Origin: a virus | Length of the DNA stretch: 64,000 nt | IMG/VR virus record: IMGVR_UViG_3300045988_149268 | Coordinates: 1 to 64,000 of that record | Strand: one strand, 5' to 3' | Shown: piece after piece, positions 14,781-16,094 of the stretch | Layout: every line of letters begins with the position of its first letter | Numbering within the stretch: position 1 is the first letter of the stretch | Translations under genes and position numbers: made by a program | Notes under the pieces: generated by a model | What the model saw: the letters and a program-made list of their open reading frames with translations, nothing else | Told to the model about the DNA's origin: nothing | Databases searched by the model: none

Positions 14781-16094
14781 ATGGAACATTGTGGTTATGT
14801 TGTGAAGATTGCTGAACTGCGCAAACACACTAACGCAGATCGACTTCAGATTGCGACTATTTTTGGCAATAGCGTAATTGTCGGTCTTGATACTCATATT
14901 GGTGATATGGGTGTTTATTTTCCTACTGATCTTCAACTGTCTGAAGAGTTTTGTCAAGTAAATGATCTTGTGCGACGTAAGGATGAACATGGTAATCAGG
15001 CTGGTGGCTATCTTGATCCTAATAAGCGTAATATCCGCACTATGAAGTTGCGTGGTGAAGTTTCTGATGGCCTGTATCTTCCTATTACCTGTTTGGCAGA
15101 ATTTACGAAAGTATCTGATCTAAGCATTGGTGATACTATTGATACTGTAAATGGTCATGAAATTTGTCGTAAGTATATTCCTCACGCGAATGTCGTGCGT
15201 CATACTGGCGCAGCACCAGGCAAGAAAGCTAAGGCAAATTTCGCACCTACTTTTTATGAACACGTTGACACCGCTCAGCTGGCGTATAATTTGAATGCTT
15301 TTAAAGCTGGCGACATTGTTCAGCTGACTTTGAAGATGCACGGCACTTCTGGCCGCACTGGCTACCTTCCTCTGATTCATCACAAGCAGTCTTTGCTTGA
15401 CAAGATTTTTCATCGTGTTGGGAAGGAATATAAGGAATATGGTTACGTAACTGGCACTCGTCGAGTTGTGCTTGATGCAACTCATACTGGCGGTTATTAT
15501 GATGACAATTCTTTCCGTGAGGAAATGGCTAAGAAATTTGAAGGTAAGCTTCATAAGGGTGAAGTTTGCTATTATGAAATCGTTTCTTATCAAGGTCCAA
15601 ATGGCGCCCCCATTATGGCTTCTGGCAAGGTTCCTCCTGAATATAGGGCTCAATATGGCGATGTAATGGAATTTTCTTATGGTTGTAAGGCAGAAAATGG
15701 CTACAATGATGAAATTCCTTGCTGTGATGTTTATGTATATCGTATGACTATGGTTAATGAAGATGGCGATATGGTCGAATATTCTCCTGCTGAAATTCGC
15801 TATCGTTGTGAGCAGATTGGTGTTAAGTATGTACCTGAATTTGAAACTTTCGTCATTCCCAACGATGTCAATGCGGGCGAATATGTAATGCGTAAGGTAG
15901 AAGAATATTATGACGGCCCTGACCCTATTGGCAAGACTCACGTCCGAGAAGGTGTTGTTGCACGTATTCTTAATCGTAATAACTTTGCCGTTTACAAGCA
16001 CAAGAATTATCTTTTTAAGTATATTTCTGGCTTAATTGTATCTTCTGTCCCGGAAGATGCCAAAATCAGTGAAGATATTCTTGAAGAAATGTAA
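14781..16094 (+). CDS. ATP-dependent RNA ligase (Rnl-type nucleotidyltransferase) fused to N-terminal tRNA-binding (Myf/EMAP-like OB) domain; GC-richer
   Basis: N-term HTNADRLQI...MKLRGEVSDGLYL matches tRNA-binding OB fold; ligase motif I KMHG, motif IV EGVVAR, motif V VYKHK; RBS aaggaggtaatttcaat. Confidence 0.6.
   Translation: MEHCGYVVKIAELRKHTNADRLQIATIFGNSVIVGLDTHIGDMGVYFPTDLQLSEEFCQVNDLVRRKDEHGNQAGGYLDPNKRNIRTMKLRGEVSDGLYLPITCLAEFTKVSDLSIGDTIDTVNGHEICRKYIPHANVVRHTGAAPGKKAKANFAPTFYEHVDTAQLAYNLNAFKAGDIVQLTLKMHGTSGRTGYLPLIHHKQSLLDKIFHRVGKEYKEYGYVTGTRRVVLDATHTGGYYDDNSFREEMAKKFEGKLHKGEVCYYEIVSYQGPNGAPIMASGKVPPEYRAQYGDVMEFSYGCKAENGYNDEIPCCDVYVYRMTMVNEDGDMVEYSPAEIRYRCEQIGVKYVPEFETFVIPNDVNAGEYVMRKVEEYYDGPDPIGKTHVREGVVARILNRNNFAVYKHKNYLFKYISGLIVSSVPEDAKISEDILEEM

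Follow-up and report, generated by a model that had tools for sequence, protein, structure and literature searches.

The question raised by this locus is whether an uncultured large phage, whose host probably belongs to the gut Clostridia, encodes a new kind of RNA ligase dedicated to the repair of tRNA. The window, i.e. the whole analysed stretch of 64,000 nucleotides (positions 1 to 64,000 of IMG/VR record IMGVR_UViG_3300045988_149268), contains a gene whose product had been described, in a reading made from the sequence alone (hereafter the sequence-only reading), as a tRNA-binding OB domain fused to a ligase domain, a fusion not known to that reading from the described Rnl1-5 families. On the basis of the fold, the domain order, the conserved catalytic residues and the gene linkage observed in this work, we assign a probability of roughly 0.7 to the following reading: the gene product is an ATP-dependent RNA ligase of the Rnl5 type, it belongs to a long, mainly phage-borne subfamily, and it performs the sealing step of phage RNA repair. 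The gene and its translation signal are the following:

14781 to 16094, plus strand: ORF of 437 amino acids (ATG at 14781, stop at 16094), probable gene of an Rnl5-type ATP-dependent RNA ligase
14763 to 14769, plus strand: strong Shine-Dalgarno sequence AAGGAGG preceding the ATG at 14781, found by sequence inspection

An antisense ORF of 293 amino acids (15120-16001) was put aside; conservation tracks the plus-strand protein.

In profile searches the 437-aa protein matched PHROG 968 ('RNA ligase') over its full length (E 1.4e-68), and in Pfam it scored above the gathering cutoff with the OB family PF21189. Two further families had been proposed for searching in the sequence-only reading. PF09414 (RNA_ligase) matched residues 179-414 with an E value of 7.5e-5, which is just under the cutoff (23.4 versus a gathering score of 27), and PF01588 (tRNA_bind) gave no match to the protein at E <= 1. 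The DRB0094 RNA ligase model TIGR02306 matched residues 8-195 (E 1.3e-15); the match was confined to the N-terminal half of this model and the equivalog cutoff was missed (57.1 versus 151.15 bits). This sub-cutoff score marks a distinct subfamily inside the Rnl5 family, which is defined by architecture. The protein has more than 7800 homologues in the 90% database; 2428 representative clusters at 50% identity were found, and 379 phage records hold homologues, many of them annotated as RNA ligase. Its phage clade, PHROG 968, is large and consists of longer members of about 420-450 aa; homologues in Bacillus, Microbacterium and Mycobacterium phages are 29-46% identical to the 437-aa protein, and viral proteins in BFVD that share the fold are already named after NgrRnl. 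Megablast of the ligase gene found no match among cultured phages, and megablast of 24 kb of the window found only a short NrdD match; a close relative in culture does not exist.

The protein is divided as follows:

14781 to 15179, plus strand: OB domain of the N-terminal part (residues 1-133); its fold is of the tRNA-binding OB type, and it is the signature N-domain of Rnl5
15180 to 15260, plus strand: linker between the two domains (residues 134-160); flexibility is predicted, pLDDT being below 50 at residues 134-152
15261 to 16034, plus strand: nucleotidyltransferase (NTase, adenylyltransferase) domain (residues 161-418), recognized by the PF09414 match and by Foldseek matches

Structure prediction, which had also been proposed earlier, yielded a model in which both domains could be aligned with the RNA ligase NgrRnl: in a Foldseek comparison of the full model with the PDB the best 13 matches were all NgrRnl (best E 5.4e-15), followed by T4 Rnl2, REL1 and archaeal Rnl3, and no Rnl1 structure was within the top 50 matches listed. 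The family profile also matched NgrRnl in the PDB (E 4e-9, with the alignment running through motif I), and the NTase domain by sequence alone gave no match to NgrRnl. Matches of the NTase domain alone to VAMP7/longin among PDB sequences (E 0.18-0.3) were judged to be due to chance. The linker differs in sequence even between close homologues, and the C-terminal tail (420-437) is variable between homologues and has low model confidence. The protein ends 29 residues beyond K408, nothing is appended C-terminal to the NTase domain, and the C-terminal domain specific for Rnl1 or Rnl2 is absent from the structure model.

This arrangement answers the question of novelty. The Rnl5 family, represented by DraRnl (DRB0094) of Deinococcus radiodurans and NgrRnl of Naegleria gruberi (PDB 5COT), is defined by an N-terminal OB domain and a C-terminal NTase domain with nothing after it (PMC1807946, PMC4408790, PMC7261155), which is the domain order found here, and bacteriophage members, mycobacteriophages among them, have already been listed (PMC4408790, PMC7261155). 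Since the OB-then-NTase order defines Rnl5 and phage members are known, the fusion is not new, and its placement outside Rnl1-5 must be abandoned. The same holds for the view that Rnl5 has a different kind of N-terminal OB: in 2007 the N module of DraRnl had already been likened to the B2 domain of PheRS-beta, as a putative homologue of that OB fold (PMC1807946). Compared with NgrRnl, the 437-aa ligase is about 95 residues longer, and the extra residues are located before motif I, between motifs I and III, between motifs III and IV, and after motif IV. T4 Rnl2 and the kinetoplastid REL1, which are nick-sealing enzymes, have a similar NTase fold (Foldseek E 9e-7 to 4e-6, the match to Rnl2 being limited to the NTase part) and a KxHG motif I; however, Rnl2 carries an all-helical domain at the C-terminal end and no OB domain at the N-terminal end, i.e. 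the reverse of the arrangement seen here.

The ORF and the motifs quoted for it are real, each string being located at the expected residues: HTNADRLQI (16-24), MKLRGEVSDGLYL (88-100), KMHG (185-188), EGVVAR (390-395) and YKHK (405-408). Conservation was assessed in 57 diverse homologues, whose identity to the window protein ranges from 28 to 66%. The ligase motifs are the following:

15333 to 15344, plus strand: motif I, KMHG, aligned with VKLDG of NgrRnl, which contains the nucleophile Lys170
15576 to 15578, plus strand: putative motif III glutamate E266 (in YYEIV), present in 57/57 homologues
15948 to 15965, plus strand: motif IV, EGVVAR (E390), aligned with rEGLVFK of NgrRnl (Glu312) in a weak stretch of the alignment
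15993 to 16004, plus strand: motif V, YKHK, in which both lysines (K406 and K408) are present in 57/57 homologues

In addition to these glutamates and lysines, K185, G188, Y320, R321 and G391 were invariant in all 57 homologues, and H187 was a histidine in 55 of them. The invariance of K185, predicted to be the AMP-accepting lysine, supports the earlier assignment of the C-terminal part as a covalent nucleotidyltransferase of the RNA ligase type. The T-x-K-x-H-G pattern of motif I is shared with DraRnl and agrees with its essential residues T163, K165, H167 and G168 (PMC1807946). E266 was assigned to motif III from its position and the surrounding pattern, and motifs Ia and IIIa were assigned tentatively. 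Lys170 and Glu312 of NgrRnl have counterparts in K185 and E390. Of the NgrRnl OB-domain residues in contact with the ATP gamma-phosphate or the metal (Arg4, Asp53 and Lys121), two have putative counterparts: D50 is aligned with Asp53 (D in 42/57 homologues) and K131 with Lys121 (K in 56/57). Arg4 lies outside the aligned region, so that no counterpart was placed. Arg149 of NgrRnl is aligned with Q166 and is not conserved in the 437-aa ligase. The sub-cutoff Pfam RNA_ligase score and the large insertions in the NTase domain relative to NgrRnl could suggest that the protein is not a ligase but a nucleotidyltransferase that has degenerated or been put to another use, such as AMPylation of protein or RNA or a capping-like reaction. 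We regard this as highly improbable, given that every ligase motif is invariant across the diverse homologues and that the best structural matches are polynucleotide ligases only.

Ligase activity, metal use, substrates and biological role of the protein are inferred. By comparison with DraRnl and NgrRnl, K185 would attack ATP to form ligase-AMP, with the OB domain folding over the active site and the pyrophosphate leaving group being positioned by K131 and D50; AMP would then be transferred to the 5'-phosphate end of the RNA, and the break would be sealed by attack of the 3'-OH. A different function of the OB domain is implied by the sequence-only reading, in which the protein is a candidate dedicated tRNA-repair ligase. 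On this view the domain would bind tRNA in the manner of Trbp111, CsaA and EMAPII and target the ligase to tRNAs cut by host nucleases in the anticodon or acceptor stem, and the protein would replace T4 Rnl1 in phages of Gram-positive hosts. The N-domain has an OB sub-fold in common with the tRNA-binding OB family of the PF01588 type, and the family profile weakly reaches PheRS-beta (E 0.075-0.25, sub-threshold). Against this, the lack of a PF01588 match (see above) separates the protein from the tRNA-binding OB domains (Trbp111, CsaA, MetRS-C, EMAPII/p43, Arc1p-C, PheRS-beta B2), and its N-domain, which is fused to a ligase, is closer to that of NgrRnl, whose sole demonstrated function lies in ATP handling and adenylylation and not in the binding of tRNA. 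In NgrRnl and DraRnl the OB domain contacts the ATP gamma-phosphate and is required for adenylylation, whereas it is dispensable for sealing of a pre-adenylylated nick, its deletion even increasing activity (PMC4408790, PMC7261155). Moreover, the characterized Rnl5 enzymes seal nicks in duplexes, and breaks in loops are the territory of Rnl1 and Rnl4 (PMC4408790). A trait of the Rnl5 family is that this sealing depends on Mn2+ and joins 3'-OH and 5'-PO4 ends, the 3'-OH strand being RNA.

The sequence-only reading had also drawn attention to genes for end healing elsewhere in the window, namely a T4-Pnk-like kinase and a partner metallophosphoesterase. The end-healing genes and other genes of note in the window are the following:

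10844 to 12340, plus strand: DUF2828/DUF7788 protein (Pfam), recurrently linked to the ligase
12413 to 13198, plus strand: RlaP-family (PF10127) Pol-beta nucleotidyltransferase (Pfam RlaP E 1.1e-5, above cutoff), probable RNA 3'-end restoring partner
13183 to 13896, plus strand: metallophosphoesterase (MPE) overlapping the end of the RlaP gene (PF00149 E 6.4e-12), candidate 3'-end healing enzyme
19222 to 20022, strand not given: further MPE found in the window
20372 to 20857, plus strand: P-loop polynucleotide-kinase-like kinase (AAA_33; PF13671 E 2.7e-19), candidate 5'-OH kinase
20827 to 21423, plus strand: MPE overlapping the end of the kinase gene (PF12850 and PF00149), candidate 2',3'-cyclic/3'-phosphate esterase
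31470 to 32846, strand not given: ATP-dependent DNA ligase of the same phage, separate from the RNA ligase

The kinase also matched the kinase domain of bacterial Pnkp (TIGR04075, E 4.3e-11). The kinase/MPE pair is 4.3 kb from the ligase gene, with unrelated SHMT and YqeY genes in between. For the DUF2828 protein, a PDB sequence search gave nothing and a literature search gave nothing relevant. An Rfam scan of the whole window detected two tRNAs only, which confirms tRNA-Thr(CGT) (39-114) and tRNA-Val(TAC) (5324-5399); it revealed no partner RNA, whether Y-RNA-like or of another kind. Replication genes are abundant in the window (gyrase, DnaB, RecJ, Pol III alpha, NrdD), and the ligase gene is located outside the replication block.

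Gene linkage was counted over 75 loci related to the ligase locus. In 30 loci a kinase homologue was found at a distance of up to about 7 kb from the ligase, often adjacent to it, and in 21 an RlaP homologue at up to about 5 kb. Homologues of the 13183 to 13896 MPE were near the ligase in 12 loci, the 20827 to 21423 MPE accompanied the kinase in 11, and DUF2828 homologues were near the ligase in 10. The order ligase-RlaP-kinase was kept in eight loci and adjacency of ligase and kinase in seven; five loci (L017, L018, L020, L021 and L070) show the order DUF2828-x-ligase-RlaP-kinase. The phosphoesterase partner varies by genome: it is an MPE in the window, and in L017 and L035 the kinase carries a fused HD domain. 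Linkage was missing from many relatives. An annotated 'polynucleotide kinase' adjoins the ligase in Bacillus and Microbacterium phages, and in Mycobacterium phage Bromden it is located about 4 kb upstream. The recurrence of RlaP, kinase and MPE or HD neighbours supports the role of the protein in the sealing step of phage RNA repair. In such a heal-and-seal pathway the ends would be healed by the Pnk-type kinase, by one or more of the MPEs (20827-21423, 13183-13896) and by RlaP, the 437-aa ligase would seal them, and damage inflicted by host ribonucleases on tRNA or other structured RNA would thereby be undone. RlaP function and phage RNA repair are described in two reports (PMC12776372, PMC7824862).

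The same logic underlies the T4 Rnl1 and Pnkp pathway, a phage countermeasure against host anticodon nucleases, in which the ends are first made ready by kinase and phosphoesterase activities and are then joined by an ATP-dependent ligase. T4 Rnl1, however, acts on loop breaks and has a C-terminal tRNA-specificity domain, and T4 Pnkp contains a HAD-type phosphatase fused to the kinase, whereas the window phage has a kinase and a separate metallophosphoesterase. The combination of P-loop kinase, metallophosphoesterase-type phosphatase and ligase is that of the bacterial Pnkp/Hen1 system (Clostridium thermocellum Pnkp, Rnl4 ligase); there, kinase and phosphatase form one polypeptide with an Rnl4-type ligase, and the methyltransferase Hen1 is part of the system, whereas here the genes are separate and the ligase is of the Rnl5 type. 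No Hen1 was seen among the window ORFs scanned, which were a part of all ORFs.

Several of these neighbours can be counted in favor of a dedicated tRNA-repair ligase: the linkage to kinase and phosphoesterase, the tRNA genes of the phage, a YqeY (GatB-like) gene at up to about 3.6 kb from the ligase in seven related loci (directly upstream in three), and the linkage to RlaP, without which, a preprint reports, excessively damaged tRNAs do not regain their function once repaired (PMC12776372). Taken with the properties of the OB domain described above, we nevertheless consider tRNA dedication unlikely. It is likewise unlikely that the long PHROG 968 clade is a functionally distinct Rnl5 branch, made specific for broken tRNAs by its tRNA-binding-type OB domain and NTase insertions, and that it represents, with RlaP and modular kinase/phosphoesterase partners, the missing dedicated ligase for tRNA repair in large phages whose hosts are Gram-positive bacteria or actinobacteria. 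If true, this would provide the first physiological substrate for an Rnl5-type enzyme.

Alternatively, the protein might act on DNA, sealing nicks in which the 3'-OH strand ends with a ribonucleotide and which would stem, for example, from intermediates of RNA-primed replication, from the excision of ribonucleotides or from lesions in the phage genome, in parallel to the radiation sensitivity of the DraRnl knockout. DraRnl and NgrRnl accept DNA as the 5'-phosphate strand and as the template, loss of DraRnl slows genome reassembly after irradiation, a phenotype related to DNA repair (PMC5397189), and the abundance of replication genes in the window would fit such a role. However, the phage encodes an ATP-dependent DNA ligase of its own, the RNA ligase gene is not part of the replication block, Pnk-type kinase/phosphoesterase pairs like those near the ligase are typical of RNA end healing, and the partner RlaP is reported in the preprint to act on RNA only among E. 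coli macromolecules (PMC12776372). We therefore judge action on DNA to be improbable, and retain the reading as the sealing enzyme of RNA repair.

The GC content of the gene had been taken as a sign of horizontal acquisition. The gene is indeed richer in GC than the window (0.406 versus 0.341), but the step from there to acquisition is a weak inference. Its GC3 is 0.308, compared with about 0.17-0.30 in most window genes, some genes being more deviant, and the excess resides mostly at first codon positions (GC1 0.566). Since the GC1 excess reflects amino-acid composition, GC content gives horizontal acquisition no support.

Taken by itself, the gene adds one more large phage with an Rnl5-type ligase and end-healing enzymes, and its annotation is routine. 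Its value lies in the fact that the in vivo function of Rnl5 ligases has been called uncharted (PMC5397189): the linkage of ligase, RlaP and kinase, with an MPE or HD partner that can be swapped, points to cultured, tractable systems in which RNA repair by Rnl5 enzymes may be studied during infection.

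The ligase is encoded on the plus strand by an ORF of 437 aa, which extends from the ATG at 14781 to the stop at 16094 and is preceded by a ribosome-binding site (AAGGAGG, 14763-14769, +). All motif strings quoted in the sequence-only reading were found at the expected residues of the protein: HTNADRLQI (16-24), MKLRGEVSDGLYL (88-100), KMHG (185-188), EGVVAR (390-395) and YKHK (405-408). PHROG 968 ('RNA ligase') aligned end to end (E 1.4e-68), a 90%-clustered protein collection contained more than 7800 homologues, some of them 98% identical, and 50%-identity cluster representatives matching the ligase numbered 2428 at E <= 1e-3 and 756 at E <= 1e-30. 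With tblastn it was detected in 379 phage records (343 nearly full-length), many bearing an 'RNA ligase' annotation. Identity was 44-46% in Bacillus phages and ~29% in Microbacterium and Mycobacterium phages; Vibrio, Alishewanella, Prevotella and Gordonia phages also had homologues. Taking these PHROG, homologue, cluster and phage-record matches together, the gene is clearly real. A 293-aa antisense ORF lying wholly within it, 15120-16001 (-), is probably a by-product of its composition.

The following domain models matched the protein:

Residues 7-102: PF21189 'PHA02142 OB-fold' (Pfam), E 2.6e-7, 31.4 bits, passing the cutoff of 27 bits
Residues 179-414: PF09414 'RNA_ligase' (Pfam), E 7.5e-5, 23.4 bits, just missing the cutoff of 27 bits
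Residues 8-195: TIGR02306 RNA_lig_DRB0094 (NCBIfam), E 1.3e-15, 57 bits, missing the cutoff of 151 bits

Thus the RNA_ligase domain predicted by the sequence-only reading was matched, albeit below the cutoff, and tRNA_bind (PF01588), its candidate for the N-terminal part, had no match at E <= 1 in the Pfam scan. TIGR02306 is the family model of DraRnl (Deinococcus radiodurans, DRB0094), which together with NgrRnl (Naegleria gruberi) represents the Rnl5 ligases; the match spans the OB domain, the linker and motif I. In PDB searches the N-domain of NgrRnl was the only match to the single sequence (E 0.012), and NgrRnl was found at E 3.4e-5 with an 11-sequence profile and at E 4e-9 with a 57-sequence profile, the latter alignment reaching from the OB domain through motif I. 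When an AlphaFold2 model of the whole protein (pLDDT 74.8, pTM 0.72) was compared with the PDB by Foldseek, the best 13 matches were all NgrRnl structures (best E 5.4e-15, ~435 aligned columns, covering both domains), followed by T4 Rnl2, REL1 and archaeal Rnl3. The TM-scores to NgrRnl were low (0.33, 0.41) and the rmsd high, values that fit a differing placement of two rigid domains on the linker, whose residues 134-152 were modeled with low confidence. The next structural matches were a run of tRNA-binding OB domains, among them MetRS C-terminal domains, so the intuition that the OB domain is of tRNA-binding type was correct.

The fusion had been suspected to lie outside Rnl1-5, and this claim of novelty does not hold: an N-terminal OB domain of tRNA-synthetase type is a known Rnl5 signature. 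Raymond and Shuman described the N module of DraRnl as a putative homologue of the PheRS-beta B2-domain OB fold, joined N-terminally to an adenylyltransferase domain without a C-terminal module, and their alignment already included a homologue from Aeromonas phage 44RR2.8t (PMC1807946). This DraRnl-like organisation became the definition of Rnl5 in subsequent papers, which place its members among bacteria, archaea, unicellular eukaryotes and phages, those of Mycobacterium among them (PMC4408790, PMC7261155, PMC5397189), and viral proteins of the same fold are named after NgrRnl in BFVD.

Residues were mapped by profile alignment to NgrRnl, except D50, which was taken from the single-sequence PDB alignment (NgrRnl residue first):

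Lys170 (nucleophile): K185
Asp172: H187
Glu312 (motif IV): E390, in a weakly aligned stretch
Lys121 (OB domain, ATP gamma-phosphate contact): K131
Asp53 (OB domain): D50
Arg149: Q166, not conserved
Arg4: outside the alignment, no counterpart placed

Motif I, T183-x-K185-x-H187-G188, matches the pattern of the essential DraRnl residues T163, K165, H167 and G168 (PMC1807946). Among 57 homologues (28-66% identical to the window protein) the motif I lysine, K185, was invariant, as were G188, S190, T164, E266, Y300, Y320, R321, E390, G391, K406 and K408; K131, H187, R192 and R227 were kept in 55-56. The protein is ~95 residues longer than NgrRnl, and motif spacing distributes the extra residues over four places: before motif I, in the I-III and III-IV intervals, and beyond motif IV. 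The protein therefore falls into a distinct 'long' phage clade with Rnl5 architecture, biochemically uncharacterised, which agrees with the missed TIGR02306 equivalog cutoff. Six homologues (P0121, P0124, P0135, P0137, P0144 and P0260) are ~790-813 aa, about 350 aa longer, and their ligase match is split just past motif I, at about residue 190. In P0121, the one subjected to a domain scan, the insert carries Hint/intein-splicing and LAGLIDADG domains, indicating that an intein has inserted at the active site of the ligase.

In gene content the window resembles a segment of a large phage genome, with two tRNA genes and genes for PhoH, ClpP, a PARG/Macro protein, methyltransferases, gyrase A and B, DnaB, RecJ, Pol III alpha and NrdD. 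The contigs that carry close relatives of the ligase are 150-175 kb long, and many of them fall into MAG bins of gut Clostridia. The relevant genes are:

10844-12340: DUF2828/DUF7788 protein
12413-13198: RlaP (Pol-beta family) nucleotidyltransferase
13183-13896: metallophosphoesterase (MPE), overlapping the RlaP gene end
17180-18328: serine hydroxymethyltransferase (SHMT)
18412-18852: YqeY-like (GatB C-terminal-like) protein
19222-20022: second MPE
20372-20857: Pnk-type P-loop kinase
20827-21423: third MPE, overlapping the kinase gene end
31470-32846: separate ATP-dependent DNA ligase (PF01068), within the gyrase A/B, DnaB, RecJ, Pol III alpha and NrdD replication block

The proposed end-healing genes are therefore present, the kinase 4.3 kb from the ligase, a loose linkage. 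The DUF2828 protein had no PDB sequence match; a terminator-like hairpin (12344-12374) lies 3' of its gene. Directly downstream of the ligase are two small cysteine-rich ORFs (16168-16356 and 16480-16755) with CxxC...CxxC and repeated SCGC/CECDCG patterns; neither gave a confident family, a DUF7130 match to the first being below cutoff, and the second has homologues flanking the ligase in 7 related loci. Further upstream is a cluster of genes for a microbial PARG/Macro-domain protein (6999-7787), a SAM methyltransferase (7788-8645) and a C-5 cytosine DNA methylase (9926-10765). In D. radiodurans, LigB is encoded in one operon with a PARG and a polynucleotide kinase, on the megaplasmid that also carries DraRnl (PMC5397189). 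An SPFH/flotillin-like protein is encoded at 21447-22901. Near 56-57 kb the GC skew changes sign and long ORFs go to the minus strand (~56000-64000), which marks a boundary of divergently oriented gene blocks.

The ligase gene is GC-richer than its surroundings (0.406 against 0.341 for the window), as had been noticed, but the suggested recent transfer is weakly backed: GC3 is mildly raised (0.308; ~0.17-0.30 in most genes), most of the excess comes from first codon positions (GC1 0.566), and the DUF2828/DUF7788 gene (GC 0.442, GC3 0.471, about twice that of its neighbours) and the SPFH/flotillin gene (GC 0.441, GC3 0.379) deviate more in GC3.

Linkage was studied in 75 related loci searched with the window proteins (tblastn, E <= 1e-5); many are on truncated contigs, and the counts are lower bounds. 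Within ~7 kb of the ligase, homologues of the kinase were found in at least 30 loci, of RlaP in at least 21, of each MPE in at least 10-12 and of DUF2828 in at least 10. The order ligase-RlaP-kinase occurs in L014, L017, L018, L020, L021, L042, L056 and L070, and the ligase directly adjoins the kinase in L024, L035, L039, L040, L043, L046 and L060. An annotated 'polynucleotide kinase' adjoins it in Bacillus and Microbacterium phages and lies ~4 kb upstream in Mycobacterium phage Bromden. SHMT has homologues close to the ligase in 3 loci and SPFH in 2; in the Roseburia contig L035 the ligase-kinase pair is followed directly by a TnpB/Cas12f-like (OrfB_IS605 + TNB) gene (8440-9747). Module composition differs between relatives: in Hominicoprocola and Roseburia contigs (L017, 8337-9251; L035, 7301-8212) the ligase-adjacent kinase carries a fused HD phosphohydrolase domain, instead of the MPE pairing of the window, and the end-healing phosphoesterase thus appears interchangeable between genomes.

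The linkage agrees with what has been published on phage RNA repair, where RlaP accompanies RNA ligases (PMC7824862); according to a preprint, RlaP extends damaged RNA 3' ends by one or two nucleotides (PMC12776372). The ligase may be dedicated to tRNA repair, as originally proposed, given its link to RlaP, the tRNAs carried by the phage and the YqeY-like genes within ~3.6 kb of it in 7 loci (directly upstream in L006-L008), for which a tRNA-related role is conceivable. However, in characterised Rnl5 enzymes the OB domain promotes lysine adenylylation through the ATP gamma-phosphate contact, and the substrates are 3'-OH/5'-PO4 duplex nicks with an RNA 3'-OH strand (PMC4408790, PMC7261155), so the OB fold alone does not imply tRNA recognition. 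Loop-break repair is ascribed to Rnl1 and Rnl4 (PMC4408790), and tRNA specificity is unproven. A role in DNA repair, as suggested for DraRnl (PMC5397189), is possible but less favoured than RNA sealing, since the phage encodes a separate DNA ligase and RNA ends are what the conserved partners act on.

The first interpretation was thus partly right, in its domain identities and its RNA-repair setting, and the gene is an additional member, in the long phage clade, of the known Rnl5 architecture. The best-supported reading of its product is an Rnl5-type ATP-dependent ligase, which would seal RNA breaks once the ends have been healed. That the phosphoesterase is displaced although kinase and ligase remain linked argues for a functional heal-and-seal module.
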